A DNA stretch of 64,000 nucleotides from Botryllus schlosseri (taxonomy: Eukaryota), in contig CM119371.1 of the NCBI GenBank assembly GCA_051294905.1, forward strand, positions 25,050,001-25,114,000, given 5' to 3'. This document shows positions 9,001-61,177 of this stretch, piece by piece. The position numbers and the translations under genes are program-made. Below the pieces are notes generated by a model. The model did not search any database, was not told where the DNA came from, and saw only the letters and a program-made list of their open reading frames with translations. Each line of letters begins with the position of its first letter. The first letter of the stretch is position 1.

Positions 9001-12000
9001 ATTCATGATTAAATTTCGTCATATAAGTATAGTTTCATATATTTATATCAAACTTTTATCCTATGCCAGCCCTTGCGATCAGATTCACCGGTAGAGTTGA
9101 TGCGGGTTCAGGGTCTTCGTAAATTAAGGGTAGTTCTTATTGCTGTGATGCCTCTTTCGGTGTGTTAATTGTTAATATTCGCCTTTGTTGGATGCTGTTA
9201 TTTCTTGACCTCCTATTTGGGTAGTCGGTATAGTGAAAAGATATCGTATTTGCCCTAACGCAGGCAGATCTGAAGCTAATTTCCGTCGTCGCGAGTAGAA
9301 CAATATTCCGAATTGGTATTTCTTTGTGAGGCGTATCATTTTGACCATCTGCTGTTTGCATCTGAACTGCGGAACTCAGATTACAAAGGATTCTACTCTA
9401 TTAAAATTGTAAATCAACACGCACTGGGCCGCGCGTAGTGCGAAGAAAATTTGAAGAATAATTCAAACCTCTCATTAATTATTGAGTCAATTCGTAAATT
9501 CAATATCGATATTTACGGCCACCAACACATCCTAATTGAGATAAATGTCGACGGCAACATAATAGGGATGGTGTGAACCCCTGAAAAGCTCAGGCATCGT
9601 CGTAATGAGCTAGGCGCCAAATATCCACGTTAAACCGTTAATATCGATTGCTAACAAACTCCGAACTAGTCAATGTACTCATATCGCCTTACTATGCGAA
9701 CCGAAAGCGTAACTATAGTCATGTTATGAACAGCCACAGGGATTCATTCTGTAGTCCTCGAAACGCGAAAGCGTTTCAATATTCATGATTAAATTTCTTC
9801 ATATAACTATAGTTTCATATATTTCTATCAAACTTTTATCCTATATCAGCCCATGTGATCAGATTCACCGGTATAGTCAATGCGGGGTCGGGGGTCATCG
9901 TAAATTAAGGGTCGTTCTTAATGCTGTGATGAATCTTTCGGTGGGCTAATTGTTATTATTCGCCTTTGCTGCATGCTGTTATTTCTTGACCTCCTATTTG
10001 GGTAGTCGGTATAGTGAAAATATATCGTATGCTATTTGCCCTAACGCAGGCCGATCTGAAACTAATTTCCGTCGTGGCCAGTAGAGCAAGATTACGAATT
10101 CGTATTTCTTTGTGAGGCGTATCATTTTGACCATCTGCTGTTTGCATCTGAACTGCGGAACTCGGATTACAAAGAACTCTACTCTATTAAAATTGTAAAT
10201 CAGCACGCATGGAGCCGCGCGTAATGCGCAGAAAAATTGAAGAATAATTCAAACCTCTCATTAATTATTCAATCAATTCGTAAATTCAATATCCACATCC
10301 TAATTAAGATAAATATCCACGGAAACGTAATAGGAATGGTGTGAACCCCTGAACGGCTCAGGCTCGTATGAGTGCAAACCTTTTTCAAAGGTTTTGTGTG
10401 AACGCGAACGTGAACCTATGGCGTCCAGTGACGTCCCATTGCTAGTTGCAACCCTACAATTCAGTGAAGAGACATACTGAAGCAACCCTACAGTTCAGGT
10501 AACTGATAAGTTAATGTACTGCACACGATACCCAGAGACGACTCTGGCCACTTTATGCTACAATGATGAAGCTGATATTTCAAACATCATCAAATGTATC
10601 ATCTGGAGCAATCAAATGCTAAAATAATCCAATACAATCAATATCTTCCGTTGCTTTGCCAACGCTTTCGACGAGGACTTGCAGGGGAATATAAGCTTAC
10701 GCCTTAACGGTCCGGGCCAGACCGGACAATGTATTCGGTGTCTGACTATTGCTACATTGATACTGAGTGCAGTGTAAACAGGTTTCAATACTTACTACCG
10801 ATATTACCCCAATACCAAGTTAAACAGAAACCAGCACCCCAATCGCACGGTTTCGGGTTTTTTGATGCAAAAAAATATCAAGTTAAGATTGATCTCTTAC
10901 GCCTGCTATATTTTTTACATTAGAAAAAGATCTATTCTTCATATATATTTCATTGATTGGTTGAATAAGCATTGTTCGCGCATTACCTGCATGTAGTGTA
11001 TTTCATTCTTGATTTTTGATTGCATATCAAGTTCACAGCAGAGAGTTACTAAATATTCACGAACAGAAAGCTGAATATTTCGAGCGAACATATGCCACAA
11101 TGCAAGTAAAATTATTTAAGATTTGCAAGGTGCATGCTCCTTCAGTGTTGATTTCTTTTATGTTGCTAGCGCCACGGATAGAGTGGTCCTAGTTGAAGGA
11201 AAGAATTTTACCCAAAGATGTTACAATGGCGTGATATTTTGTAACATGCGAAAAAGGTTCACATTGCAGAACCTACCAAGGTTCGTTTGTGAACGTGAAC
11301 GTCTAAATTTCCGAGGTCCATAACAGAACGCAAACGTGAACGTTCACACCATTCCTACCGCATAACTTTTCTTCTATTACTACCGCAGATTGGCCATCGC
11401 CGAAGTCGTATCACCTAGTGGGGATTGGTAATATTGGGTACGGAAGGCTAGCTTACTTACAGCAACAAAAAAAAATATGTTGAAACTAAAAAAAAAAATC
11501 AGCATTTCAAAATGCATTACCAAACGTTCTTCAGAAGTTTCGAATAAGATCGCAGTCCAGGATGCGTGTTGGTGATTTGTGCTCCAAACCTTGTTATTTG
11601 GTACAGCCTTGCGTCTTCGCTCGTCATTGAATTTCATAGGTTAGATCTCAGGTGTTTTGGTCCTACCATTAAAGGCTTTCATGTTTTCCAGACCATTTTC
11701 CACGCCGACGATGAAGCGAGCGATCATGGTAGTCGCAATTACCTGGATGATGTCCGTACCATTAGGGTTGATACCGATAATTCCTGCCTACGAAGATTAC
11801 TTTCTCAAACATGTTTCGTAAGTCAATTTCTTGGAAATTTTAAACAGAAGGGAGAACACCGGGCAATTTTGAATCTTACTTATGCGCGATAATGGTCAGT
11901 AACGAAATACTTCTACATTTGCGAAATACCAATGTAGCTTTTGTCTACATTCACTGGTTAACCAATTGGATAAGTTTTGAACCACTTCGACTTATACTAA

Positions 12001-15000
12001 ACCGTTTATCGGCAAAAATATATACTGATCGTACTCTGGATTCTGAAATTTAGAAAGTGGTCTTGGGTTTCATATGCGGAACTTTTAGGAGTGAAATTGC
12101 GGCAAAAATGCGGGAATAGATCGGTAATGGCCGTAACTGAATAAATCACCGTATAGGTAACGGATTTGCAGTGCCATTGTTCATTTTGGCCTAGTCGCGA
12201 ATATGTATCTTGTAATTTCAAATCCAGCCGTCTTCCATTACTTGCTAGAAGTGTGCCAGCCCGCTATCCAATCCACTTTTTTTTAAAAACTAGGCCAACT
12301 CACTTAATAATTTTAGACCATTCATATAATCTATATTCACTTCTCTTAATGCAGATGTTACATGTGTTGGAAATCGCGACGTCAACATGTAATCAACTTG
12401 CCATTTTCTGCAGCATTTCTCCTATCATTTGAGTATCGACTCTGATTAATGTAACCGCTTGTTCACTTGTGATTCCTCCGTGGCCTAATGCGTATACCAG
12501 CAATCATATTTTAGGTTGCATACAATTTGCGGTTATGTTTGCAGAGCATTTTACGGTCATTAAACATTTGCTACATATAGTAGGGACGGCAAACCTTTTT
12601 GGTCAAATGTAACGGACGGTTTTCCGAACCATTGCCTGGTCAGTTGAGTGTTAGTGACCTGTTATATCGTTCGATATTGACGAGTCAAATTAGGTAACAG
12701 GGAGTGCAAGACGTATCTTGTACCAAAGTGCCAAATGACCAAAACCGTGGCCATTTACGCCATGAAAAATCTGTGTACATTCATGGCTATAAAGCCGAGT
12801 TAACCGCGAAAATGCTGCGAAGTGAAATTAAGTCAACGATGGCGCCCGGAAATATTAATATCGCGGGTTTCATCTAACACGTATCGGTCATTCATATAAA
12901 TTACTGTGTCCGGGCATGAAGATGGCTACGGCAGAGATGCCAGTCCCCGCGGGCTGCGCGTCACTAGATCGCAGGAGCCGAACACCTCAAGCAATATCAG
13001 GGATATTGCGTGCTTATATATTTGATGCTACTTGTAATTTGACTCAATTCTGTAAAATATGCGTATTTGCCATTTACATATTTCGACAGAGAGAGAGAGA
13101 GAGAGAGAGAGAATTTTTTATTCATCATCGCAAAATACCAAAACAGGCAACAAAATAGCATAAACTTCAGAATCACGGACACATACAAAACAAATGGTTA
13201 CAGTGTCAGTTTCAAAGCAAATGAGATGTGTACGAATACGATTTACAGTTCATAGGATTGGCCAATATGTTTTACGATTGCAAGATGAAGCTGCAGCGAA
13301 GTGATCTGTTGATCATCAAGTCTACTGCAGCTGATCGAAGTAGATTGGCTATAAATTGCATACATCGTACTGCAACAGTGAATTGTAAGATTGACAGGAT
13401 AAATGTAATAGCACTTGTTAGGAAAAAATGGGAGGAAAATAATATAAAGTGTACTGGTCTGAAGCAAACAAGATATGTTGACCGGTACTAGTTCACACTA
13501 AAAATACATTTTAGCTTTTGTATGATTCAATAAGGAAGGCACGATACATGGTTTTAAACCCATATAAAGTATTGCTCCTAATATGCGAAGGAATGGAGTT
13601 CCACATTAGAGGACCTTGATAGGCAATGGTTTTGTGATGGGTCTTAGGTAAATACAGATTCATGACAGAACCTCTTGTAAAATGAGAATGATGTTCACTG
13701 ATAGGTGTAAAGTAGTTCGAGAAAATGTCAGGTAGGGTGTTATTGTAAAACTTATGCATCAGAGTGCCGACTTCAAATCTGTAAATATCATCAATTTTTA
13801 GGATTTTTAAATTATAGTATAAGGGGTTAACGTGATCTCTACGATTGGCAAGGCATATTAGTTTAATGGCTTTATTTTGCAGGCTCCTAACTCGATCCAA
13901 ATGTTTCTCCCATGTGGATCCCCAGAGAATGATACCATAAGTTAGATGAGAGTGAAATAGGGTATGATAAATCAATATTCGTGTGGATTGTTGTAAAATA
14001 AAACGTGACTTTCGAATGATACCTATGGTTTTAGATAGCTTGTTGCAAATAGAGGTTATATGTTCACCCCATGTCAGATTGTTATCAATAACTATACCTA
14101 AATAATGTATGCTTTTCTGTAGAATCAGGCTTTCCCTATTCAGCCTTATATCAAAATTACTATTCGAATTCCTTCCAAAGAGCATACAGTGAGTTTGTGA
14201 GGTATTTATGGTTAATCTATTATTATTCATCCAATCCAATATTTTTCGCAGGTTTGAGTTGCAAGAGGACTCTAAGTCAGTTATATTGTTCGACGACAGC
14301 ATCAGAGATGTGTCATCTGCAAATAATTGGATAGTAAAGTCAGAGGCATTATTTAAGTCATTTATATAGATCAAAAATAAGAAGGGACCTAAAACGGATC
14401 CTTGTGGTACACCCATTTCAACTATTGATTTATCAGATGAAAATTCATTACTTTTGACAAATTGTCTTCTATTGTTCAAGTAAGACTCCAATAGTTTATA
14501 CATCACTCCTCTAAATCCATAGTGATGTAATTTGCCTAGTAGTATAGTTCTATCGACAGTGTCAAATGCCTTTTGCAGATCTAGATAAACACAAATGGTT
14601 GATAGCTTCTTAAACAAGCTCTTATAGATGTTATCAACACTGTCAATTACAGCATGCAAGGTTGAGTGGTTTTCTCTAAACCCAAACTGGTTTTTAGATA
14701 ATATATTAAATTCATCTGTGAAGTTGGTTAATCTAATAAGCATTAATTTTTCTAAAATTTTAGAAAAGACTGGTAATATTGATATTGGTCTATAGTTGGA
14801 TAACTTGAGTGGATCTCCTTTTTTGAAAACTGGAGTCACACGTGCTACTTTGAGACAATCAGGAAAGATCCCAAGTTCGAAACATTTGTTAATCAATACA
14901 GTGAGGGTTGGCGCTGTTATGGATATGGTTTCCTTCAAAATATTAACAGGAACACCATCAGTCCCTGTTGCCGAGTTTTTTTTTTAGATTGTGCACAATT

Positions 15001-18000
15001 GTGATGATTTCATTCTCTGTTGTTGGCTCAATGAAAATTGAGTTAGGTTGTGGCCTACCTAGGTATTTCTTGTAGGTTCTAGATAGCACATGTTTATCTG
15101 CAAGATTTTTTCCAATGTTCGCAAAATATTGATTAAACACATTGCATATGTCTTTCTCAGCAGTAATAATGACATCGTCATTACTGATTTTCGATGGAAA
15201 TTTTTTTGGTTTGGATGTTTTGAATAATCGATTTAAGAGATTCCAGATTTCTTGTTGATTTCCTTGGATCTTCTGGAATTGGTCCCGATAATAATTGCTT
15301 TTAGATTTTTTCTTCACTTTGGTAAGAATATTAGTGTACTTTTTGTATAAAATTATTTTATCAGCATTGCCTGGCAAAAAATGACTTTTATATAGTTTAC
15401 GTCGAGTTGCTATAGATTTACGGATTGCATGAGTGAACCGAGGTTTGGTCGAGAACCGGCGTTCTTTGCGCGTTAGTTTGCGAAGCGGTGCGTATTTGTC
15501 CAAAAGTGAATTAATCAAACTAATGAATGAGGTAAAGCATTGGTTAATGTTATTGGGTTCGGAACTGCAGACGAGTTGTAGGTCAGTTAATGCTTCAGTA
15601 AGTTCGGATGAAAACAAATCAAGTGAGAGTCTTCTATAGTCGCGAATAAAATATATTTTAGGTTTAACTCCTGGTGAGGTATTAGCAATTTTACAGAATA
15701 CTGGCAGGTGATCAGATATGTCACTGATTAATATACCAGAGTCGTGCTGAGAATAGTTGTTTGTAAAGATATGATCAATCAGCGATTGAGTCTTTTGAGT
15801 TATTCTAGTAGGGTCATTTATCAGTGATTGACAAGAATAGTTAGTTATAAGATCGGCTAATTCACTAGAGTATTTATTTGATGTTTTAAGAAGGTCTATG
15901 TTGAATTCTCCTAGCAGGTAGAATGTCTTATGCTGTGCAGTAAGCTTTTCTAGGCAATTCTCAAGAGCTTCAATAAACTGAGCCAGTGGTTGGTGGGGGT
16001 GTCTATAGATAGCTCCTATGACAATATTAGATCTTTTTTTTTTTCAGATCAAGGGGGTCTCTATCCAAAGTTCTTCACAACTTTTGAGTTTGAGATCAAA
16101 TTCAGTGATAGTTTGAAATTGGATACTATTTCTAACGTAGAACCCCACTCCCCCAACTATATATGGAGAGTTCGCATTTATGAATGAGTATTCATCTAGG
16201 CCAATTTCATATGGTAGGACAGAGGCTAGTCGAGTTTCACTGATTGCAATTATGTCAGGTTTATGACTAAGATCTGAAATTATTGAGGAAAGAATCCCTA
16301 TGTTCCTAGGTAGAGATCTCACATTTGCATGTAATAATAACATAGAAGGACTATCATCAAACAAACAATTGAGGTTTTCAATGTTATGATAACTAGTACT
16401 AATAGGTAGGTTCATTCTCGGTGACCAAACGTATTCTTGTGAAAGTTGCACATTGTCAGGCAAAGAAAAAGGTAATATGGAGTTAACGCATTGAAAACAA
16501 TAGTAGTTCTCTTCGAATAATCCAAGATGAATAAATTGAAGAATAGTCAAATTACTACACTTAAGATGGAGCCAAGAATCACATAAATCGCAGTAAATAG
16601 CTCTCTGATTTGATTTACAGGGTTGTCGGCAGAAGCCGCAAGGAAACCTAATAGGCATGGCTATCAGATAATCTCATCATCATAGATACACTTTTTCGTA
16701 TTATAAGAAAATGTTGTACCTTGATAAGTCCTCATCATTTTTGATTGACATAGCTCGTTCATCGTCATTCTTTTTCAGGTAGGTAACTCCATGTCTTGTC
16801 CAAATGTATTTAAATGCATTGGCTTTTTCATACTTGAGACAGGCATTGAATCTTGTACGGTTTGACTTTGTGAGGCTTTCATTAATATAAATTTCTCGTT
16901 CTTTATGTAGTATTGATCTGTTGCTGAAGATTGCGTCTCTGACTCTCCTCGAGCAGAATTTGGGTAGTATGATCGGATCTGGATAGTCTTCGGTGGGTTG
17001 CCCAAGTCTGTGGCATACACTTATGTCATGTTTGTTGATGTTCACTTCCAATTTTTTTGCTACAGTGATTACTAGATCGTCAGTACATTGATTCTTGTTG
17101 TAGGGAATTCCTTTTATTTCTATACATTCTCTTCTTCCATACTGGTCAAGGTCATTGATTGCTCTACATGCTTCATTATTGGAAGACTGTAGGTCGTAAA
17201 CCATTTTCCTTAGTTCACAATTTTGAGATTTGATTTCGGATAGTTCCCGGTTTGAGGTGTCGAGTTTGTTTTTGATTTCTTCATACTTGGCGCTTAGGAA
17301 CTCAGCACTCTTTTTAAGTTCTTGCACTTCATTCATCAGATAAGCAAATTTCTGTCCAGTTTGATCTTTTTGTTCGTCAATTTTCTCTGTCAGTAAATCC
17401 AGCTTGGACAGGATGGTCTCATAATCCACATTTTTCTTGGTCCTTTGTGTCATCGTCATTATTGGTATATATATAGGTTAGGGTTGTTCAGAATTGACCG
17501 ACTTTCAAAAAGTCTAGGTTTTCAGTCCGTTTCCCATGCCTTATACCTTAAAAACAAATTCTGGCAACTTTTTTTTGTAATTCATCCCCTGCATCCGTGT
17601 GCACATTAGGGTTGTCCAAAATTTGGAAAATCTCAAAAATGATGGGTATCAATGTCTCATTCTATAGATTATTGATAAAAAACAACAATGGGCCTGGAAT
17701 AAGCTCACAGGAAAGTCGTTAAGATTTGTCGCAAAGCGTTTGAAAGTAGCTACCAACAAGTGGGCGTACCAGCGACCATAGAACGGCAACAAGACTAGTA
17801 ATCACAAAATCACGGCTCTCGATTGGCTAATTGGCTATGCTTCAATGATCACGACGGTGGTGCCTTGCTGATCCGTTGTTCAAGGATCGAGTCTGCTAAC
17901 GGCGGTGATTCTGTAAGCGCGTTGTAGATTGGTTGGCAGATAATGATTTAGGATTAATTCAGGACATGTTGAGTTACTAAATACACGACGATGAACATTG

Positions 18001-21000
18001 AACAAACAACAGCTGCTTCACATAAACTTAAAGCATGACTGGCTTATTGTGAAGGAAACCGCAGTAGCCCACATGTCTGTTTTGACCGAGGGAAAGCGCA
18101 GAAATATCGCAAAGGCGCTTATGCAAGTGGCGAACGCATTTCTTGTTTCAGAAGGGATGCATCATCATCAAATACAAATATAAATCTTAACAATGACACT
18201 ACTTTGTGTGATCTTATTGGGCTCCAGCCGTGCTATATAACTGAAGTCCTGAATGCTCTAAGGATTGGCTGAATCAGCCGTTTATGCTGGCGACTTATTA
18301 AACTCTTGCAGCAAAATGAATTCACTCGTAAGTGCTGTCAAAGTCGCCAATGATGACGTAGAAAGAGGTGTAAAGGTAAACACAGACTATGCTGGTCTGA
18401 CCAGCAAAAAGACAGTCTGCTGGTATATCTTAGCATGTCCTGAATGAATCTTGAATCATTACCGGCTGGAACACTACAAATGCTGGAATCAAACCAGACA
18501 TGGATATAAAACGAGCTTGAAATGCATTGAAGCAGTGCGATAGTTACGAGCTTGAAATGCATTGAAGCAGTGCGATAGTTACATTTCTTCGGGATCCAAT
18601 ATATAGGCTATCACGTCGGCCCGTATAACATCTTCTGAGCAGATAAGATTCTGTGCGGCATCCATCTCACATATGGTGTGCTGCAACAGTTTGCGATGAC
18701 TAATATACTTCACTCACGCCCAGAAAAGTAGGAGCACTGTCCCACCGCCGTTTAACCTAGCTGTCATGCCTGCAATTCTCTAAGGATAAGCTATACATGA
18801 AACCTGTCTTTCTAATGGTCATACCATCATAGTCTGTTCTTATACCTTTTCAACTCTTTGTGCGGCATCATTAACGACTTTGACAGCACTTACGGGTAAA
18901 TTCGCTTCGTTGTAAGAGGCTAAAAAGTCCCCAGCATAAACGACTGTTCCAGCCAATTCTTAGGGCATTCAAGACTTCAACCACGACTGTAACCTAATAA
19001 GATCAGTCAATGTAGTGCCATTGTTAAAAGCTTTATATCTGTATTCAATGATGATGCATCCCTTCTGAAACAAGAAATTGGTTTGCCGTTTTCGCCACTT
19101 GCATAAGCGCCTTATTCGCAATATTTCTTCGCATGTTCTGTGCTTTCCCTCGGTCAAAACAGACATGTAGACTACGGCGGTTTCCTTCACGGTGAACCAG
19201 TCATGCTTTAAGTTTGTGTGAAGCAGCTGTTGTTTGTTCGTCATCATGTATTTAGTAACTCCACACGTCCAGAATTAGTCTTAAATCATTATCTGTCAAC
19301 CAACCTACAATGCGCTAACAGAATCACTGCCGTTAGCAGACTCCTTTAACAACTGATCTGCAAGTCACCATCGCCGTGATCATTGAAGCATAGCCGATTA
19401 GCCAATCGAGAGCCGTGATTTTGTGATTACTAGTCTTGTGGCCGTTCTATGGTCGCTGGCACGCCCACTCGTCGGTAGCTACTTTCAAACGCTTTGCGAC
19501 AAATCTTAACGACCTTCCTGTGAGCTTATTCCAGGCTCATTGCAGTTTTCTATCAATAATCTATAAAATAAGACATTGATACCCATCATTTTTGAGATTT
19601 TCCAAATTTTGGACAACCCTAGTGCACATAGAGCTGGAAGAATATCAGCTGAAAATAGGGGATTCCCCTAAAATCTGAGTGTCACGATTTTACCTAGCCT
19701 TGGTAAAGTGACATATAACATGGATTTATGCAGCTGTTGCGGTTTGGAGTGCTACAAAAGCCCACTATATAAGGTATTCGTAGTTCAGGATATCATTTCC
19801 ATGTCCCACACTGCCTTAGAACTGCTCAAAACTACCTAAAACTGATAGTCATTTTGTTGGATCACATATCCTACACCCCTCAAACATACCCGACACTGTT
19901 CATCAATTTCCTGGATCCCCATGTGCAAGAATACAACTGTAAATGTAACATCCACTCACAGCCACATAATAAACATCACAGGAAACGAAAAAATAAGGCA
20001 AAGAACGAGATCAACTTGGCAAAATATTGCATAAATCAGGTGGATGAAATGGTTGCTTTCGAAAAATCTGCATATCTGTTCCGGTGATCTTCCACAGCTT
20101 GTAGGAGGCTCGCTCGCTGTTTTTTGTCATCCGTTATGAACGCAGCATAGTCGGTATTCAATTTTACCGTACGCTCTGCTGCATCATTAACTACTTCAAC
20201 AGTATTCACAAATTCTTCAGCAGTCACAAAATCCGGATCAGTTTGCCATTCCGAAACTGGAAGACTCAACCAATCATGTTCCACATGTATAGCATCAAAT
20301 AGAAACCACGATTCTGGCCCAATCAAATCGACCATACTCATTAACTCAGAGACAGAGTCAGAGATCAGACTGAGAGGCATATATCTGCGAAATTTTTCAG
20401 GGATTGGCATTTTCAGCAATTTAGCAGCCATCGCTTCCTTCAGTTTGTCAGGAATCTTTGGATTAGCCGAGAACATGGTAAATACCACCATTTCCTCAGT
20501 TAAATACTAATCATGTTTTCGCAATTTCTTGTATGCCACATCAGCAACAGTGAGATCGCATAATGAAAAGTTTTTCATGTCATGAAGGAAGTTGAGATCA
20601 TTCCAAGGTGCGTCACATGCAATACCAGTTTTCAACCAAGCTGGAACATAAAACAAACCAATGAATGTATTGATTCGTTCCAACTTTTCAATGAACTCTT
20701 CAGAATAGTCCATTTCCTCACTCCACATGAACATTTTTTGACAGTACAGGACTTGACTCATACATCTAGCGCTATGAGTAGCACCAGGCTTGCGAAAACG
20801 ATGATCAACATATTTGTCATCCAAAATCGCCAGGGTGCCTGTTGCACATTCTCTGTAGTCATCTCTTATCATGACTTTTTTCTGCTTTCCATCATTGGGT
20901 TTCATCAGTGGAATTATTTCTTGCTTTACTTCATCAGCTTTCATCGCCAACCAGCTGCCTTCAATAAACTTCAGCGTTTTATAGCTTCTTGATTTATCAA

Positions 21001-24000
21001 TATGTTTCCTCTTCTTCTTGAAGGTATTAAAATCCGTGTTTTCAGGGCCTGTGGTTGTCGATTTAAACAAACACTTCCAAACCTCTCGAATGACCAGTTC
21101 ATAAATATGATGGCGACAGGCATTGTAGAAAACTTTCCTGTTAATCAATTCTTCAAGTAACGGAACCGCACCTTTGTTTTTACCAGTGTTTGAGGATGTT
21201 GTGTCAAACACAAGAGCTCTAACAGATTTTGTTAAATTCCAAAGCTCCAGCAGCTCAAATGATGCATCAGCCTGTGCTTTCCCTGTAGCACTCTCCAGAG
21301 TTTGAATGCCAAGAAGTTTCCCTTTCTTAAATGCGCCGGAATACGCAGACGATGCGAGCACTGCCAAGGCCTCAAATTGATATCCTAGACGACTCTTAGT
21401 GAGCTTTTCATCCCAGTGCAATGCAATGTGCTCTGGTGGATTGGTGGATATTTTTTCAAAGATAGATTCGGAAATTTTCAAACGATTTGCAATGCGTCGT
21501 CGATAGGCCCCAGATCTTGAAAGATGGAAGTCATTAGGGTTGCCATCGCAAGCTTTAATCAGTGCTGCAGTTATCATGGTAGCGGCATTATCACTGACTT
21601 GCAAGCGATCAAAAACCTGGCATAGGTCTTCGTCACTGAATAGGTTTAAAGGAGCTTTTAGAGTCACAAATTCAGCGGAATGCCCAGATGTCGACTGTGC
21701 AAGTTCAAAATCAGTGCTGTGAAAAGTGTCAGCTACCTGTGAAGATACAGATAAGCTCTCTGTAAATTCACCTTCGCTACTTGATGCTGGTTCAGACTCT
21801 CTTGCACTCATGGTCCGTCTCTTTTGTTGCATGGTTTTCACTTTCAACAGTTTATCTTTGCCACCGATCGTTGCTAATCTCGGACCCCTTTGATCCTGAT
21901 AAAATGCTATGTCTTCACGTTTTTTATCGTCAGAAAGAAATCTACTAGCTTCAATTCTCGCTATCGCGTCAGGGGCTCCTATATCCCTAGCTTACTCAGT
22001 TTAGCTTCAAAGTCGCTTTGTTTTTTTGATACATATTGCCGGCCTGCAGTTTTCTTTAGTGACAGCCATTGTTTCCATAATGTTTCCAATCTTTTAGTGG
22101 CATTGACTTTTGTGATAGTCTATATGCCAGCAAGTAACCAAAAACCGATCACTTCATCTACTGCGATCTGGATGTGTGACTTGACTGGTTCATTTTAAAA
22201 AAATGAATGCTCTCTCAGGTGTAGCACATATTGCATAACTTGCCTCAGAGTGGGCAACTTCGATCCCGTAATGGCTTCCTCAGATGGCCCAACTAAGAAA
22301 TGCTGTGTCTGCAATCGTGTTCTTGTAGTTTTCTTCGGTACTGCTGCACTAGATGACGATTTTCTTTTTTTTTCAGACATTTCGCACTACAGCTAATCCT
22401 AGAAAAACAGATATACATAAACTCAGTCAAGCAACAAAGAATAGTGGAAAACATTTCAGTTCTTTTAGAGTTTTAGGTCGAACACATACTTCATAACTTG
22501 CACAGGAGTAGCCAGATTAGATCCAGTTATAGATTATCGAAGATAGTTATTCCTAAATTGGAAAAACTCATACCAGTATATTGATATCTTGGGATATAAC
22601 AAAAAATTTAGAGCAACCGACTGGCGGTTTCCCCAGTCACTGGAATAGACATTTGCAAGCTTTGTTTCTATCCCAGTAGAAAGGAAAAGAGTATCAGGTC
22701 TATTATATCAAATAGTTGTATACTGCTATAATACTATGTTCACTAATCACGCGCTAAACTCGCTAATAGCATGAGTCAAAACGCCGCCTGATAAGTCCTG
22801 CACCTCAATCGTAAACACAGTCCATCAACAACAAAGCAGCAAGGCACCTGACTAATCAATGATCCCCGTTTCACAGCCGTGCGCAGCGCTTCATCAGCGC
22901 TAGAACATACGCGTCACGTCAATGAGAACACACGCCATTCCTGTCGAGTCACTGACAACGGGGGAATCCCCTAATTCCGAATAAATTTTTAGGTGCATGA
23001 GAAAACGGCAATGTGCACACGGATGCAGGGGATGAATTACAAAAAAAAGTTGCCAGAATTTGTTTTTAAGGTATAAGGCATGGGAAACGGACTGAAAACC
23101 TAGACTTTTTGAAAGTCGGTCAATTCTGAACAACCCTAATGTAGGTATATGTTTCTTATCATAATCAATCAAGGGAACAGCAATAAATATAGTGGCACGA
23201 ACGAGGGGGAAAACCGTCAAGATAAAATGTCGAGTTCAATAAATCTGCCGCGACTTATGTAAATTTACAAAGATTAACGAAAAGCCTGGGTGGCAAGGAA
23301 TCTTGCGCCTCCTCTGGCTACGCTAATGCGTCGGAACTGACTTATTTGCTGTCAACATTCCAAATTCTGCTGTCCTCATAATGAAATATTCGGTAGACGT
23401 TGCAATTTCACACTAACTTACATGGGTAACTTGATCTGTTATTATTTATTTCGAAAATTACAGCTCTGGTCACGAGTTGGCAGACCCTCACATGGACGAA
23501 CAAAGATTCATAAACACTCTTGAGCGACAATGATGTCAGTAGTGGGATAGGACTCTATTAACGACTTTTCATAGTATCAAGTCACAAATGCGATAAAATA
23601 ACAACCACAGAATTGACTGTCAATGTAAGAACCCTGCTAATACCAACTTTCATTTCGAATAGGTTCAATGACACGTCGATATTTAAAACAAGAGTTAGTC
23701 AGACCGACAGAGATCGAATTCTCAACTGGTTCGGCTTGATGAGCAACGGTACAAACCATGTGGACGTGGACAGGTAGAACCGAACCTATTTGCTAATCAT
23801 TACGTTCAATTCTTGTTTGATTCACGCAGAAGCACACAGTGGGCTAAACTGAGACGGCTTCTCGCTCAACTCAGTTCCAGTAGCCCCATCAGACCGACCT
23901 ACGAATTCGGATACTACTCAAGCCACACAGTGTGTCTCCCAACATTGTTTCCAGATCGACAAGACACTTCGTGGGTGTACTCGTTTCTTTTCCTGGTGCT

Positions 24001-26892
24001 TAATTTCCTGGCATTTTTCTTGATGCTGGTGTGTTACATCGCGTTGTACAGGTTCGAATAGGCAATTTGTAATTATACTAATAATAATTATTGACGTTGA
24101 TTCTGTATCAGTAAAAAGTTCGTCAATATTGCTGAAAGACAATGTATGGTCTGATAGAATCATGGAAATCCTTAACAATATCAAGGAAGCAAATTTGTTC
24201 GTTTTATTAAGCAATTTTGGGGCTTATCGCCTAATCAGTTTATTTGTACCATGATAATGAATGTTGTAATGTTCATTGGTCCTTGCCTTCGGTAATCCTT
24301 TGGAACGAGTTTCAGTCACGCATCAATTCACCATCTATCTCTCTCTCTCTCCCTCGCTTGCATGCGTCCTTGTCAATGTTTTTGTCGCTGATTTTGGAAG
24401 CTTGACTTCTCACGATCAATCTGGGTTTTTCCCTCGACACTGCGTACGCAATGTGGTCAATTATAAGATAGGATACACCTGCAAGACATAAATACTTGGA
24501 AGACCTGTGACTCGAGCCAACAACCATAGGCGACGAGGCGTTATAGGTTATGCGGCGCCATTCGCAAGCTTATTAAATTCTTAGAAAACTACATGATTCC
24601 TGGAGTATTTACCGATTCGATGGGTTTTTCGTCAAATGATGCATTGTTGGAAACCTGCTAGAATGTTGGTTAGCTGGTTAGATACATTTACTTATTTTCA
24701 ACCAATGTGTTCACAAATTGTCATGTCGAACTGCACGGAGCTTGGTATGTTCGGCTGTGTGTTTCGCAACAGAGACACGACATTACTTCTATTCCTAGTG
24801 GAGCCAGTGTTACTGACAAATTCTTACTGGGGTAATTCAACAGGAAGGCTAACAATAACAAAGCCTTGGAATCGGCAAAGGCGCGGGACAAAAGAAGCAA
24901 ACAAAGCGCTGCAATGCAACGTAAAGTCACCAGGATCCTCGTATCCGATTTTCTCTGCTGGATGCCTGTCTGCATCATGGGTTTCTTACAGATGACAGGT
25001 GCTTACTTATTATATTGCATAATACGAAAGTAAACCATACACAGCGCTGACGGGATATAATCAGTCAGCGGCGCTGCTTAAGCATGGAAGTAGGGAAATA
25101 CCATAAATTTCTGTCCAAGACGTATCAAAAGTTGTTCAAATCGAAGTATAAATCAGAGGTCTGAAAAGTACCAAAATAAGCAGTGGTGAAAGTAGTTTTC
25201 ATCGATATATTTCCATATTTTTTGCTGATGTAGCCATAGATTAGTAACGGAAAGATCAATACTCGCGATGAACTTGTATGAAGAATTAGGGCTATTTCAC
25301 CGGAAGTGCTCAAAACACGTTTTTAATGGAACCGCTAAAATCCAGACACGGTGGGCGTCCCTTAGTGTGTGTGTAGGGATTACGTCAATTGTCTGTAGCG
25401 GTAGTATCAGTTCTTTTCTAGATCTGGACTGGAATATCTGCTGCGAGCGAAGACCGATTCCCAATTGACCGTTAAAGCCCACACACCGTTGATTTTCCGT
25501 AGCTTGAATCGCGGATAATGGCTAACTACTGACCTATAACTTATAGGAAAAAAATACACTGCTAATTACTATAAATAAAATACATTACCTTAATACAACG
25601 CTAGACGAAAGGCGACGCAATAACCCTGTCCACTGTACGAAATCTTTCTCAGGAAAGACCGAAAACGTGGTTTGTAGCTAAGTTTGTCTCGAAAGGTGAA
25701 GTATGTACACTTTGTACAGCATCACAGAATCACTCAATCTCGGAAAAACCACCTTGACAACACTAATCTCTTCTACTCAGAGTAAGGTAGAGTGTAATGT
25801 CGTAAATTTATCGTGTAACAGTTGAAGTGGCGATTTCTAGGTGAGTAGAGTGTAATGTCGTAAATTTATCGTGTAACAGTTGAAGTGGCGATTTCTAGGT
25901 GAGTAGAAGAGTACGTATTGTATGCCTAGATTCACCTGGAAAGCCTCAAGTTAAAAAAAGCCTAAGACAATATACATACTTTAGTACTTGGTAAAAGTAG
26001 GCATAACCTACTTGATTTCCATGGGAAAACGAGAAGTACTTCGTTACGGACAGTCCATTTTTGTGCTGATTTCACACATATATACGAGATGCGAAGGTAT
26101 CAAAAAATTGCTTTACATTTGTCAAAATCCAAACTTTAAGAAGTTGGTAGTTTCACGGAAATTTTTTAGTTGAGGTACAGGTGAAATTCACGGCCACTTG
26201 ACTAAGCAGTGCGAACCGTCTGTAGTAGGACATACTCTGAAAATGTAGAAATAATTAGCTCCTGGCAATATCCGATGGTACATTATCGTGATTGTATACG
26301 AAACCGCGAATGCTACCAGTAGTGTAATATACAAACCGACTATAGTACCACATATTAGGAATGACAATTTTGAGAGCTGAACACGAACATATCTCCGCTA
26401 GGACATCCTGATTTGTCATGTTTATCCCGGCAGATTTTTCATTTACTCTGAAAAGCAATTTTCAGATAATCGAGCGTGCTTTTCCGTCGAACATATTTAA
26501 ATATTTTGATTTTCAGTCATATGTTGTAAATCACGTTTAATAATAATTGCTTTACGTTTCAGGCGTTGCTATTCCGAACGACGCTTACCTACCAACAGGC
26601 TTACTCATCCTCCCCATTAACAGCGCCCTTAACCCATTCCTCTACTCCAACCTTCCCGATAGGCTTTTAGCTGAGAGAAGGAAAATTGCGTCGCGGTTTG
26701 CGGACTCATTTCGTAGTTCGAGGGTCGGAGGTAAGCGGAGATGATTCTGTCTAATACTTAACTTAACAATGAATCAACTATCAAATTTATTCGAAGTGAT
26801 GTGAATTGATGTTTTTAGAGTCTACGGAAATCACCCTTACGACCCGGGGCGGAAGGATAGAGACGATTGGTGTTGGGGAGAATAGAGAATAA
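1..26892 (+). CDS. Multi-exon LDLa-containing class-A GPCR (GRL101/LGR-related, ascidian LDLRR-GPCR-like); 5' end lies upstream of the window
   Basis: 13 GT-AG exons join in consistent phase with no stops: 1-82, 875-970, 1551-1611, 2983-3081, 4732-4861, 6265-6413, 6477-6658, 11692-11817, 23663-23773, 23830-24051, 24844-24998, 26563-26730, 26819-26892. Motifs seen: LDLa (FFNCDG...VCDEHKDCASGIDEC), TM2 LSVSDLLVG, YC..D.EWRTS..C, TM3 SEQSV...TVYRL, FGYYS...CLP, TM6 DFLCWMP, TM7 LPINSALNPFLY. Confidence 0.9.
875..970 (+). CDS. GPCR ectodomain exon (YPRPPAMNSSLRFRTCSVDYDPAKQSGSCLV)
   Basis: ATAG acceptor, GTAAGT donor, open frame, phases fit both neighbours. Confidence 0.75.
1551..1611 (+). CDS. 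GPCR ectodomain exon (YTCTDVPYQEVSIIRDCKNQ)
   Basis: TTGCAG acceptor, GTAAGT donor, phase-consistent. Confidence 0.75.
2983..3081 (+). CDS. GPCR exon, Cys-rich region and first half of LDLa repeat
   Basis: TTTAG acceptor, GTAAG donor; DTNCTEGVCRANCNCTFFNCDGAVGGKYIHGKA. Confidence 0.85.
3396..3675. repeat. Direct tandem duplication, ~139-bp unit x2
   Basis: Near-identical copies start at 3396 and 3535. Confidence 0.9.
4061..4450 (+). mobile_element. tRNA-derived SINE followed by a second 5'-truncated copy of the SINE body
   Basis: A-box TAGCATAGCGG and B-box GGTTCGATCAC; the core (TCAGACCA.AGAC...CTT.C..GCTTG.CG...TGCATTAC) occurs twice (~4138 and ~4308). Confidence 0.6.
4732..4861 (+). CDS. 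GPCR exon, second half of LDLa repeat and start of TM1
   Basis: VCDEHKDCASGIDECQPGCIRSAFSDEQSLITNKGVLVVVWIF; TTTTAG acceptor, GTAAGT donor. Confidence 0.9.
4907..5857. mobile_element. Non-autonomous hAT (Charlie/Buster-type) element
   Basis: TIRs CAGGGGTGTCAAAC / GTTTGGCACCCCTG; 8-bp TSD GTATAGAA/GTATCGAA. Confidence 0.85.
6265..6413 (+). CDS. GPCR exon TM1-TM2
   Basis: IFAIVGCTVVVIS...KVLILSLSVSDLLVG; CAG/GTAAC boundaries. Confidence 0.9.
6477..6658 (+). CDS. GPCR exon TM2-ECL1-TM3
   Basis: VYTIAICIKA...RYCTIDLEWRTSSTCSSLGALLIIGSEQSVLTMVLITVYRLRAVM; LGR/GRL101-type motifs. Confidence 0.92.
8818..10363. repeat. Tandem duplication of a ~780-bp unit (about 8818-9595 and 9596-10363)
   Basis: Co-linear diverged copies (twin ORFs MQTADGQNDTPHKE...); each unit ends with the first ~35 bp of the adjacent MITE. 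Confidence 0.9.
10331..11357. mobile_element. hAT MITE family A (TAGGRATGGTGTGAAC termini)
   Basis: TIRs TAGGAATGGTGTGAAC / GTTCACACCATTCCTA; homologous to copies at 28077-30304 and 37637-38525. Confidence 0.85.
11692..11817 (+). CDS. GPCR exon TM4
   Basis: RPFSTPTMKRAIMVVAITWMMSVPLGLIPIIPAYEDYFLKHV; TTCCAG acceptor, GTAAGT donor; phases match both neighbours. Confidence 0.88.
13511..16658 (-). pseudogene. LINE ORF2 (PHD finger - APE endonuclease - reverse transcriptase), disrupted
   Basis: PHD CGFC...CDLCDSWLHLKC...CFQC; APE NVRSL, ISET, YRHP, IDHIF, SDHLPV; RT NYRPISIL, DLQKAFDTV, GVPQGSVLGP, LFADD. One in-frame TGA (16044-16046) and one +1 frameshift in an A10 run (14976-14985). Confidence 0.92.
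16701..17459 (-). CDS. LINE ORF1 protein (coiled coil followed by RRM-like/CTD region)
   Basis: Intact 252-aa ORF with heptads, then DLDQYGRRECIEIKGIP...HRL...IYINESLT...KYIWT, typical of L2/Crack-type ORF1. Confidence 0.88.
   Translation of the reverse strand: MTMTQRTKKNVDYETILSKLDLLTEKIDEQKDQTGQKFAYLMNEVQELKKSAEFLSAKYEEIKNKLDTSNRELSEIKSQNCELRKMVYDLQSSNNEACRAINDLDQYGRRECIEIKGIPYNKNQCTDDLVITVAKKLEVNINKHDISVCHRLGQPTEDYPDPIILPKFCSRRVRDAIFSNRSILHKEREIYINESLTKSNRTRFNACLKYEKANAFKYIWTRHGVTYLKKNDDERAMSIKNDEDLSRYNIFL
17607..19621. mobile_element. Fold-back non-autonomous hAT element (~825-bp inverted arms, ~350-bp spacer) nested at the inner edge of the left TIR of the hATm-like element
   Basis: Termini TAGGGTTGTCC / GGACAACCCTA; perfect 8-bp TSD GTGCACAT (17599-17606 and 19622-19629); arms ~17607-18435 and ~18785-19621. 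Confidence 0.92.
20036..22380 (-). pseudogene. hAT(m)-like DDE transposase pseudogene
   Basis: ORF pieces 22195-22380, 20507-21847 and 20036-20491. Motifs LHWDEK, VFDTTSSNTG, ACRHH (CxxH), PGATHSAR, VVNDAAER. Frameshifts and stops in the 5' part; in-frame TAG at 20507-20509. Confidence 0.88.
23663..23773 (+). CDS. GPCR exon, ECL2 insertion
   Basis: FNDTSIFKTRVSQTDRDRILNWFGLMSNGTNHVDVD; AATAG acceptor, GTAGA donor, phase 2/2. Confidence 0.75.
23830..24051 (+). CDS. GPCR exon ECL2-TM5
   Basis: ...EFGYYSSHTVCLPTLFP...YSFLFLVLNFLAFFLMLVCYIALY; within ORF 23813..24061. Confidence 0.9.
24844..24998 (+). CDS. GPCR exon ICL3-TM6
   Basis: ...AMQRKVTRILVSDFLCWMPVCIMGFLQMT. Confidence 0.9.
25787..25907. 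repeat. Perfect ~59-bp tandem duplication
   Basis: GTAGAGTGTAATGTCGTAAATTTATCG...TCTAGGTGA occurs twice. Confidence 0.9.
26563..26730 (+). CDS. GPCR exon TM7 and C-tail (reads to a stop at 26744 if unspliced)
   Basis: VAIPNDAYLPTGLLILPINSALNPFLYSN; TTTCAG acceptor; GTAAGC donor at 26731. Confidence 0.9.
26819..26892 (+). CDS. Probable terminal GPCR exon (ESTEITLTTRGGRIETIGVGENRE*)
   Basis: TTTTTAG acceptor; phase 1 matches the 26730 donor; TAA at 26890-26892. Confidence 0.55.
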
Positions 26893-33324: not shown

Positions 33325-33780
33325 CAGGGCTCGGCGAAATCGAGTACCTGATTGATTCGATTCTGAATCACGTCATACGCTTCGAGTCGAGTCGAGTATC
33401 TCGCATTATGACGTCACGTCAGACTGTACCATGTCAAGTTCAAATATGTACCTTTTATGCTATCACAAATAACATAATGCCTGTTATCGTTAACATTAAA
33501 TATACTTTGGCGTTTTTTCGACCATACCGATTTCATTGGAATTCTTGACAATGTTGTGGGATGATCATGACTCCAGAAATGTGTTATTTCCAGTAACGTT
33601 TGTGGCTCTGTACTATGTCTGGTATGCTGTAACACGACCAATGATGTTTTCAAGGCTTCCTCACTGGAAAATAGTATCAAAACTATAATGCTCGTTAGCA
33701 AATTAACTTTCAGTTGCGAGAAGCATAAAATTTCAGTACTCGAAAAAAATCGTTTTTTACTACTCGACTCGAAACTGAAT
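33325..33780. mobile_element. hAT MITE family C, truncated older copy
   Basis: Co-linear similarity to 34184-34699. Confidence 0.75.
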
Positions 33781-34183
33781 AGTGCTCAGCAAGGATGCCA
33801 CTGGGATATTTCCGAACAACCCATGCAAATGCTAAAAAAATAACAGGAAACACAGATTTTATATTTCACCCAAATCTATATGGGATAGCTGTGAAACTGG
33901 AAACTGACAATATTCAATTACAGTCATACTGACGTAGCAGTAGGTTTTATCCTACTGTTTAGCTCTGGTAGAAGGGACCAACGACTCCACTTAAGAAAAA
34001 GTGCCATCATAAGCGAAGCCGACTTAAATACAGCAAAAGTCGGACATTCTTCGACACTGAACGCTTCTGCAATATACACGCGAGATAAGATATTGCGGTT
34101 AATTTACAATCCAGCTTAGTGGTTTTAACCTTTTTCACTAATCATCATATTGGCAAGCTCACGTGGACACGAGAGGTTATTAG

Positions 34184-34699
34184 TAGGGCTGGGCAAAATC
34201 GAGTACCTGAGTGATTCGATTCTGAATCACGTAATATGCTTCGAGTCGAGTCGAGTAATCGAGTATCACTCATTATGACGTCATACCACAACGCAATACG
34301 TCAAAGTTTAAATATGTACCGTTTATGCAACCACTAAGATTATAATGTCTGATATCCATCACATAAACATACTTTGCTATTTTTCCGACTACACCGATTT
34401 CATTCCATTTGATGACAATGTTGTGGGATAATCATGACTTCAGAAATGTGCTACGTCCAGTAACCTTCGTAGCTTTGTACTGTATGTTTCGTGTGCTACG
34501 ATACCGCCAATCAAGGCCTCAAGGCTTCAACAGTGAAAATTAGTATCATAACTATATTTCTCGTTGATAAATTAACTTTCAGTAGTGAGGAACGTATAAT
34601 TTCAGTACTCGAAAAAATCGAATTTTACTTCTCGACTCGAATCATTAAAATTAATACTCGATTCAGATTCGAGTACTCGAATCATTGTGCCCAGCCCTA
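34184..34699. mobile_element. hAT MITE family C
   Basis: TIRs TAGGGCTGGGCA / TGCCCAGCCCTA; perfect TSD GTTATTAG. Confidence 0.92.
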
Positions 34700-48613: not shown

Positions 48614-49151
48614 TAGGGCTGGGCATAATGATTCAAGTACTCGAATCTGAATCGAGTATTAGATTTATTGATTCGAGTCGAGTAGAGTAGTAAAAGACGA
48701 TTTGTTTCGAGTATAGGCCTAACTGAAATTATACGCTTGTCGCCACTGAAAGATCATTTATCAACGAGAATTATAGTTTCGATACTAATTTTCACTGTTG
48801 AATAATTGAAACATTGGTTGTCGGTATCGTAGCATACGAAACATATAGTATACAAAGCTACGAAGGTTACTGGACTCAGCACATTTCTCAAGTCATGATT
48901 ATCCCACAACATTGTAACCAAGTGGAATGAAATCGGTATGGTCCGAAAAATACCAAAGTATCATTTATGAGATGGATAATAGGCATTATATCCTTAGTGG
49001 TGGCACAAACCGTACATATTTGAACTTTGATGTGTTACATTCAGTTATGACGTCATAATGAGTGATACTCGATTACTTAATTCGACTCGAAGAGTATTAC
49101 GTGATTCAGAATCGAATCACTCAGGTACTCGATTTCTCCCATCGCAGACTT
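48614..49151. mobile_element. hAT MITE family C (reverse orientation)
   Basis: Reverse-complement homolog of 34184-34699; perfect TSD GTTACGAG. Confidence 0.88.
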
Positions 49152-57721: not shown

Positions 57722-58230
57722 TAGGGTTGCATTTAAAACAAACTGTTGTTTAATACACTTTGTTGAAACATGTTTTAAACAGTGTTTTAAACAAAGGCTT
57801 TGAAAAAAAATGTGCCATGATTGTGTAAATAGATTCCAAAAACATGTATGAGCCACCGACGACGATTACCATACCCGATAAACCCGACGTATAAGATATG
57901 GGATGGTTGGGACTCTTGAAATAGTCGGTTCAACAGCTATAGTACGTAGATATATATCATTGTTACGGAATGAATGTTCGGATGATGATGACCGCCGACC
58001 GTAAAAAGCTGCACGACGATGTAGTCCCGGTTAAAGATATTTTTGGTCCATAGTTGACAGGGGTTGGAAGCCTATTTCGTCAAAGGAGCTATATTAACCC
58101 TATGTTTTCAATTGTCAATATATCAATCCAATATAACATCACAATTGCTTATGCGTGACGTCATTGCTGACAAGGGCGTTGTTTTGAACATTTATGTTTT
58201 TAATTGATATTTGTTTTAAACACAACCCTA
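57722..58230. mobile_element. hAT MITE with TAGGGTTG termini
   Basis: TAGGGTTGCATTTAAAACAAA / TTTGTTTTAAACACAACCCTA; degenerate TSD ATTATTCG/ATTATCCT. Confidence 0.7.
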
Positions 58231-60895: not shown

Positions 60896-61177
60896 TCAAT
60901 CCAACAGAACAGTTGAATTGCTATTCGAAGGTATCTGATACAGACAACTGTAAACTAATTCTTTAAGTTTGTTCATCGTAGCGTAACGACCATTTTTACG
61001 AATCCATAACTGTATCATTTGATATCGTTGCTCAGTCAAGTTATAGCAATCCGTGTATTGGCATTCGGCAATTTCATTGTCAGATAGCTCAAGTTTTTCA
61101 CGTGCAAACCTATACCAGTTCATCGGGTCAATCCGATCCAATGTGACGTATATATCACTAGCAGTAATCTTGGACAT
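60896..61177 (-). CDS. Death-domain protein (93 aa as read; possibly a truncated or pseudogenised larger gene)
   Basis: MSKITASDIYVTLDRIDPMNWYRFAREKLELSDNEIAECQ...EQRYQMIQLWIRKNGRYATMNKLKELV fits the death-domain pattern (W..FAR.L.LS..EI...EQ.YQM...W...G..AT...L); CTGTAG acceptor 7 nt before the ATG. Confidence 0.75.
   Translation of the reverse strand: MSKITASDIYVTLDRIDPMNWYRFAREKLELSDNEIAECQYTDCYNLTEQRYQMIQLWIRKNGRYATMNKLKELVYSCLYQIPSNSNSTVLLD

Follow-up and report, generated by a model that had tools for sequence, protein, structure and literature searches.

The major precedents for the element described here are rearranged mariner lineages with long terminal inverted repeats (TIRs), namely, Rpmar49 and Rpmar17 of Rhodnius (PMC4678618) and Dromar7, -11, -28, and -36 of Drosophila (PMC4161770). 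One-end-duplicated lineages of this kind are recognized by long TIRs that arise through end replacement, together with transposase homology, and both were found here. In the extended-TIR (2RT) copies of Galileo, internal sequence was likewise recruited into the TIRs, and ectopic repair was proposed as the route (PMC3573991, PMC4168063). A second comparison is with Mu killer (PMC3440606) and the Ac killers (bioRxiv 10.1101/2020.01.07.897926), which carry the same element end twice together with inverted transposase sequence, in or beside a host gene. Such an inverted duplication of end and transposase sequence is also present at our locus, and the Ac killers are hAT elements as well. The read-through model for Mu killer is disputed in PMC3440606.

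The window analyzed is a stretch of 64,000 nucleotides of Botryllus schlosseri DNA, in which a fold-back, nonautonomous hAT element of 2015 bp with termini TAGGGTTGT was located at 17607..19621. Its left arm (17607..18432, plus strand) and right arm (18787..19621, minus strand) are 88% identical. Self-blastn paired element nucleotides 1-826 with 1181-2015 (83.7% over 853 columns), and 708 of 801 ungapped columns matched between the arms (88.4%), with the first 51 nt identical and the identity declining from 94-95% at the end to 80-82% inside. This gradient from 95% to 80% could be used across copies to test for conversion starting at the ends. The target-site duplication (TSD) of 8 bp that is a feature of the hAT superfamily was present as a perfect match, GTGCACAT, at 17599..17606 and 19622..19629 (both plus strand). 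The same target occurs once, uninterrupted, in the other TIR of a host hAT element (17479..23138, minus strand) whose TIRs at 17479-17606 and 23011-23138 are otherwise identical (128/128). Because the TSD is perfect and this other TIR is the equivalent of an empty site, the palindrome was deduced to have inserted as a unit. The 2015-bp element, its TSD, and its inverted arms (predicted at about 825 bp and found to be about 830 bp) were confirmed as originally predicted, and its movement as a unit was supported. An assembly artifact was ruled out, as the arms differ by 12% and the joint between loop and inverted arm was found on contigs from two studies, one of which (X1) is perhaps the window's own source.

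The same prediction placed the element in a GPCR intron. The intron is real (11818..23662, plus strand, between the TM4 and ECL2 exons of an LDLa-repeat GPCR gene, by tblastn and Pfam analysis of homologues with splice sites read by eye), but the nesting of the fold-back in the left TIR of the host hAT element, itself within that intron, had been missed. The host element spans 5.66 kb with TSDs ATATAGGT and ATGTAGGT (7/8 matching) and carries a resident transposase at 20036..21991 (minus strand), seen as two open reading frame (ORF) pieces with an in-frame stop between them and likely to have further coding sequence upstream. Abutting its left end is a LINE (13511..17477, minus strand) with ORF1-like, PHD, endonuclease, and reverse transcriptase segments.

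A transposase C terminus, pointing inward, had been proposed for each arm, and both fragments were recovered in that orientation. The broken fragment in the left arm (17936..18422, plus strand) corresponds to residues 587-753 of the homologue P0007, with 93/157 positions identical, and is interrupted by 1 stop and 6 frameshifts; that in the right arm (18829..19290, minus strand) corresponds to residues 589-738, with 80/145 positions identical, and is interrupted by 2 stops and 8 frameshifts. Both arms were matched by a profile built from 76 homologues (left, E 3e-8; right, E 7e-5), and the frameshift-aware scores against P0007 (325 and 227, respectively) were far beyond the 29 to 45 obtained with shuffled sequences (four each). 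The earlier inventory did not include a third, unpaired fragment in the loop (18425..18738, minus strand; P0007 residues 511-600, 45/89 identical), which has about 14 codons in common with the arm fragments (83% nucleotide identity over 36 nt) and contains a 35-bp tandem duplication (18511..18582). Inside the left arm, the profile also gave a match on the minus strand (HHWRL), which was taken as chance since it overlaps the plus-strand fragment.

Some of the lesions in these fragments are shared. In each arm, residue 601 is replaced by a stop, and the reading frame shifts near residues 615, 690, and 702; a frameshift pair near 652/655 was left out of this count as it lies beside arm-specific indels. 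The differences between the arms were spread evenly over codon positions 1, 2, and 3 (16, 18, and 17, respectively, over 117 codons), and the codon changes comprised 10 synonymous and 31 nonsynonymous ones. The shared stop and three frameshifts, together with this even spread, indicate that the gene was dead when it was duplicated, and the order of events would be deletion and decay first, followed by mirror duplication. The derivation of the arms from two separately selected autonomous lineages was rejected, as third positions show no excess of differences.

The closest intact relative of the arm fragments was P0007, the best of 152 homologues, at 55 to 59% amino acid identity, and nothing closer was present among the longer or shorter homologues retrieved. 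The high-identity parent family that had been anticipated was therefore not found, and a closer parent may lie outside the databases. The resident transposase is 31 to 32% identical to the fragments (46/146 and 42/136), with a longest exact nucleotide match of 9 to 13 nt, and was rejected as parent or target; the low nucleotide similarity that the first reading had suspected by eye is real. The predicted structure of P0007 (pLDDT 88) gave only Hermes among its top 10 PDB matches (best E 1.8e-7). D396, C425, and H428 were invariant and D329 was nearly invariant among 64 sequences, which presumably reflects the DDE core and CxxH motif of a Hermes-like hAT fold. No hAT Pfam family was detected at E up to 0.1 in the resident ORFs or in P0001, P0003, P0007, P0031, and P0075, and the 7 weak matches from a PDB sequence search included no transposase. 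The hAT assignment consequently rests on the predicted fold and the TSD. In metagenome contigs, the 28-nt element terminus gave 0 matches, and of 31 pattern matches to P0007, 0 were confirmed.

Within the superfamily, the element resembles the hATm group, for which termini of 5'-TAGGGTG...CACCCTA-3', TSDs of 8 or 9 bp, and, in hATm-6, TIRs of 417 and 575 bp are described (PMC6004678). The TAGGGT ends, the 8-bp TSD, and the long TIRs are shared, whereas the seventh base is T in place of the conserved G (TAGGGTT, 6/7 bases) and the PF05699 domain that PMC6004678 gives for hATm-6 went undetected in P0007 and four relatives. No homologue in the retrieved set bears the name hATm, and the family is termed hATm-like here. 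In the openly accessible literature covered, mostly as search listings, no account of an hATm fold-back bearing mirrored transposase fragments was found, and the available portions of a tunicate genome paper (PMC12448946) and of PMC8721813 held nothing further on the fold-back element.

The copy number was assessed from contig depth. Relative to the single-copy flank, the summed depth was 120x (X1) and 47x (X5) for the loop and about 240x (X1) and about 80x (X5) for the inner arm, although depths summed in this way do not count copies, and the per-site depths are only 12 to 45x. The arm-to-loop ratio was 2.0 (X1) and 1.7 (X5), near 2:1, and the loop sequence was found on 9 to 17 distinct contigs per site. 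These depths suggest tens to about 100 copies of the element; a second full-length copy with a TSD of its own was not among the sequences retrieved, and an index of sequence windows yielded 0 look-alikes of the element and 0 of P0007. The outer ~250 nt, at 1900 to 3100x flank depth, also occurs in a much more numerous group of related elements. Forty-nine X1 contigs continue past the right end into letters with an agreement of only 0.42. Together with the depth ratios, these many terminal flanks point to two or more independent copies, although the flanks may belong to relatives whose similarity to the element is confined to the outer ~250 nt.

From these data, the fold-back is probably a multicopy, nonautonomous passenger moved by a related transposase and without a silencing role. 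We infer the following history for the palindrome. An internal deletion would have fused a parent element's end to its transposase at about codon 587, and the remnant would have decayed. This end and its decayed remnant would then have been copied over the opposite end. The most likely routes are gap repair or ectopic repair, templated by a member of the same family, or else deletion between two inverted nested copies, and the loop's third fragment would be a relic of the repair template or partner copy. The resulting palindrome would have kept two transposase-binding ends and been amplified in trans, its arms drifting apart neutrally, until one of the copies inserted into a TIR belonging to a different hAT element within the GPCR intron. 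Double-stranded RNA (dsRNA), if host transcription produced any, would be incidental. By analogy, this is the passenger route already described for mariner and Galileo, here apparently taken in an hATm-like family. In contrast to the mariner lineages, the fold-back is a hAT element with an 8-bp TSD, arms of 830 bp (221 bp in Rpmar49, PMC4678618) that have diverged by 12%, and a third fragment in the loop, and it seems to have been made from a gene already deleted and dead. Galileo differs in belonging to the P superfamily and, in the available portions of PMC3573991 and PMC4168063, in having recruited spacer regions rather than mirrored transposase C termini. The element would thus be a well-dissected case of a dead DNA transposon becoming a long fold-back passenger, in a little-studied branch of hAT.

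The potential to form a long hairpin was confirmed by folding. Either strand forms one, with 731 to 742 of the left arm's 830 bases pairing with the right arm, 11 or 12 uninterrupted helices of at least 21 bp, and a z of -25 for the inner 951 nt. An unlikely reading is that the coding match has decayed, and hairpins or piRNAs arising from the outer ~250 nt, which thousands of relatives share, dampen, or once dampened, elements sharing the TIRs. The outer 200 nt is the best-paired part (94 to 95%), belongs to the very abundant set, and has RNA on both strands (13.3/6.7 in X21), and Ac killers make 24-nt small interfering RNAs (siRNAs) against TIRs (bioRxiv 10.1101/2020.01.07.897926). However, the same duplex is offered by every long-TIR element, so that palindromes add nothing special, the outer-end reads cannot be assigned to the fold-back family, and conserved ends are predicted by transposase binding alone. 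A search for literature on tunicate small RNAs, as far as its sources were available, returned nothing specific.

It is still less likely that there is no palindrome family and that two dead same-family copies, head to head around a third remnant, moved once as a macrotransposon. This would account for arms 12% different and for a loop with a third, more diverged fragment, and the contigs linking the loop to the inverted arm were seen only at single-copy depth (16.8 in X1 and 86.7 in X5). It is opposed by the many distinct contigs bearing the loop at 12 to 45x flank depth, by the arm-to-loop ratio near 2, and by the private letters of the window's copy in the loop (18613 and 18623), which stand against all other depth. 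Equally doubtful is a self-spreading killer, that is, a palindromic hATm-like family that rides on the transposase of its relatives while hairpin small RNAs from copies in host introns damp the TIR-sharing family; if true, it would be a mobile, multicopy analogue of Mu killer in a marine chordate.

RNA data were taken from two long-RNA cDNA libraries, in which small RNAs are invisible and of which 3 to 6% was sampled; the 24 sequencing runs listed included no small-RNA library. No RNA run was on record as containing the sequence, which says nothing about expression. With the GPCR barely expressed in both, the loop depth was 0 in 2/2 runs, and the depth in 18931-19122 was at most 0.35. At 18854-18894, 21 to 26 X21 reads cross-map, and their loose ends, translated by hand, match P0007 in sense orientation at around residues 711-740; transcription of a P0007-type transposase appears to be ongoing. 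This count is far below the depth of the neighbor family (about 400), but only a 40-nt core, away from the transcript's 3' end, could catch such reads. As regards the suggested ADAR substrate, RNA showed no surplus of A>G/T>C places over DNA across the whole stretch covered (p 0.54 and 0.84), a weak test in that most of this stretch is outside the arms. Mismatches compatible with G-U pairing favored the minus strand over the GPCR-sense strand (37 versus 21, p = 0.048).

The killer function put forward originally, in which copies transcribed within host introns give long hairpins, and small RNAs from these act in trans to silence the parental transposase family, is the least probable reading: the folding, the intact-looking GPCR intron, the low P0007-type read count, and the use of a host promoter by an Ac killer in a host intron (bioRxiv 2020.01.07.897926, available part) speak for it, and against it stand a gene already dead when duplicated, the lack of loop reads in runs with P0007-type RNA, the lack of an A>G/T>C excess, the G-U bias toward the minus strand, and a 55 to 59% amino acid identity equivalent to about 76 to 79% nucleotide identity under neutral decay, which in simulation leaves about 1 to 4 perfect 21-nt windows per arm. 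The described killers, in the available portions of their reports, differ in carrying 5' coding sequence straight from an active element, in being near-identical to their active target (the fold-back fragments are an estimated ~75 to 80% like the nearest intact gene), and in having proven dsRNA, siRNA, and trans-silencing, whereas the fold-back, with C-terminal fragments broken before duplication, is known here from its sequence and long-RNA runs. Should small RNAs specific to the arms exist, along with a close parent that is silenced, the element would amount to a mobile equivalent of Mu killer in an animal, with implications for the way in which DNA transposons are first recognized by their hosts.

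Read-through into the fold-back from the promoter of the host hAT element was also considered and rejected. The mRNA of that family has a poly(A) site at 19924..19924 (minus strand), marked by 19 X21 reads with a poly-T loose end, and is thus polyadenylated 303 nt before the fold-back; those reads were attributed to other copies of the host family.

The fold-back element (17607-19621; 2015 bp) was found to consist of a left arm (17607-18432) and a right arm (18787-19621) around a loop, with GTGCACAT flanking it on either side. The outermost 51 nt of the two ends were identical in inverted orientation, and the arms aligned at 83.7% identity by blastn, with matches at 708 of 801 ungapped columns, which bears out the original prediction of a 2015-bp element with a perfect TSD and inverted arms. 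In successive 100-nt steps inward, the arms were 94, 95, 92, 87, 91, 90, 82, and 80% identical, and the drop from 94-95% to 80% could be due to conversion started from the ends or to selection on binding sites. The long hairpin proposed was reproduced in the predicted folds of either strand, with 731 (plus strand) or 742 (minus strand) of the first 830 bases paired with the opposite arm.

Mirrored C-terminal pieces of a hAT transposase, both directed inward, were likewise recovered. The fold-back was matched by 98 of 152 homologues, and the summed score of P0007, the closest intact relative, was twice that of the next. In frameshift-aware alignments, the left arm corresponded to P0007 residues 587-753 (93/157 identical) and the right arm to residues 589-738 (80/145), while a third fragment, in the loop on the minus strand (18738-18425), corresponded to residues 511-600 (45/89). 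The scores were 325 (left arm), 227 (right arm), and 105 (loop), compared to 26-45 for shuffles. The neighboring transposase was rejected as the source of the arm fragments, being identical at only 46/146 and 42/136 residues; the longest exact stretch between its gene and the fold-back was 13 nt, in agreement with the low similarity anticipated. The transposase family of the fold-back and its relatives was not recognized in a Pfam search. The ten best PDB matches to the predicted structure of P0007 (pLDDT 88) were all Hermes, and this Hermes-like predicted structure, together with the 8-bp TSD, places the family, as modeled, in hAT. Since the fold-back termini agree at only 6 of 7 bases with the hATm consensus, as presented in part of PMC6004678, the element is called hATm-like only. 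Elsewhere in the window, a 509-bp element (57722-58230) has termini of TAGGGTTG and is flanked by a degenerate duplication (ATTATTCG/ATTATCCT); it probably belongs to the same hAT group, as one of its small non-autonomous members.

The arms have in common a stop at residue 601 as well as frameshifts near residues 615, 690, and 702. The differences between them were spread evenly over the codon positions (16/18/17 in 117 codons), and the codon changes comprised 31 non-synonymous and 10 synonymous. Given these common lesions and even differences, it is simplest to suppose that the mirror-image duplication involved a gene remnant that was by then deleted and broken, after which the arms drifted without coding constraint. 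We consider it probable that the fold-back represents a non-autonomous family in which one end and a dead coding remnant were copied over the other end and which was spread in trans. The replacement may have come about through repair, either gap or ectopic, or through a deletion between nested copies in inverted orientation, and the loop fragment would be its relic. Spread would be due to a trans-acting hAT transposase recognizing the TAGGGTTGT ends. The candidate mobilizers include P0007-type as well as host-type enzymes; of the first 17 nt of the inner (fold-back) and host termini, 15 agree. Galileo is described in passages of PMC3573991 and PMC4168063 as likewise lengthening its TIRs. Literature searches outside Repbase and most subscription journals found no described hATm case of such a fold-back.

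The predicted location in a GPCR intron held in part. An LDLa-repeat GPCR gene on the plus strand, assigned by tblastn, splice sites judged by eye, and Pfam analysis of homologues (one a Styela clava protein), has an intron of 11.8 kb (11818-23662) that contains the fold-back, the host hAT element (17479-23138), and a near-complete LINE (13511-17477); the insertion point, however, is base 128 of the left TIR of the host element rather than unique intron sequence. The host TIRs are identical at 128/128 positions up to this point, and the host TSD matches at 7/8. The uninterrupted right TIR has a single GTGCACAT and serves as the empty site, which supports insertion of the palindrome as a unit. 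ORF1 of the LINE adjoins the host element, starting ~20 nt from its end, and the LINE 5' UTR was not continued past the host element (23155-23922 at single-copy depth). In the contig runs X5 and X1, the fold-back terminus (19621) was joined to 23062-23065, another host-family TIR position; this hints at repeated nesting of the families in each other's TIRs but may be chance among thousands of copies.

The 24 sequencing runs listed comprised no small-RNA library; four of them were mapped to 18547-24300, a stretch limited to the right arm and the right part of the loop. With the single-copy flank as reference, summed depth, which is no copy number, was 120x (X1) and 47x (X5) for the loop, about 240x and 80x for the inner part of the arm, and, for its outer 250 nt, 3100x and 1900x, with arm:loop ratios of 2.0 and 1.7. 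Per-site depth in or beside the loop was only 12-45x. Beyond the right end, 49 X1 contigs ran into letters agreeing at only 0.42, indicating many flanks, which may belong to relatives having only the terminus in common. Indirect or past silencing through this shared terminal part is unlikely, and a one-off composite slightly more so. No second copy was found in metagenome contigs or the index of look-alike windows. The summed depths loosely support tens to about a hundred copies. A loop/inverted-arm joint was present, with single-copy depth, among the contigs of each of the two studies. At seven listed sites, the window's copy differs from nearly all other depth by private letters, and it is therefore not a fresh insertion. 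Since flank pieces of X1 had 0 differences, the window may itself derive from that run.

The fold-back is built like killer loci but is without near-identity and demonstrated RNA output, and it is therefore not classed as one. An active killer, as first proposed, is the least probable alternative, protein identity to P0007 being 55-59%. By a neutral-decay simulation, this protein identity was estimated to correspond to roughly 76-79% nucleotide identity, which would leave each arm with about 1-4 perfect windows of 21 nt. Loop bin depth was 0 in the bulk RNA run X23 (about 6% sampled) and the single-cell RNA run X21 (about 3%), but GPCR exons reached at most 0.48 in these runs, so that the absence of loop reads says little about host read-through. 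The observation of the fold-back is confirmed and its interpretation partly supported. The Mu killer read-through model is itself disputed in part of PMC3440606.

RNA depth over 18931-19122 was at most 0.35 in both runs. In X21, 21-26 reads caught on a 40-nt core (18854-18894). Translated by hand, their loose ends gave the P0007 residues on either side in the sense strand, which suggests expression of a P0007-type gene. A>G/T>C places showed no excess in RNA over DNA (p 0.54 and 0.84), a count over all of 18547-24300 with little power for the arms. The family of the host element was well transcribed (X21 depth 427 at the 3' end), with polyadenylation near 19924 in both runs, 303 nt before the fold-back. 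Reads over 19891-22770 carried family letters, not those of the window's copy, and a more intact copy is therefore likely active elsewhere. At 24264-24297, 86-94 X23 reads matched a short intronic stretch only and were unlike it beyond both sides, probably representing a cross-mapping repeat or a small RNA-derived element. Also in the window were a separate gene with a Death-domain ORF (60899-61204, minus strand; Pfam PF00531, E 1e-10) and an ~860-bp repeat (33326-34699 and 48614-49150) present as two tandem copies and an inverted third 14-15 kb away.
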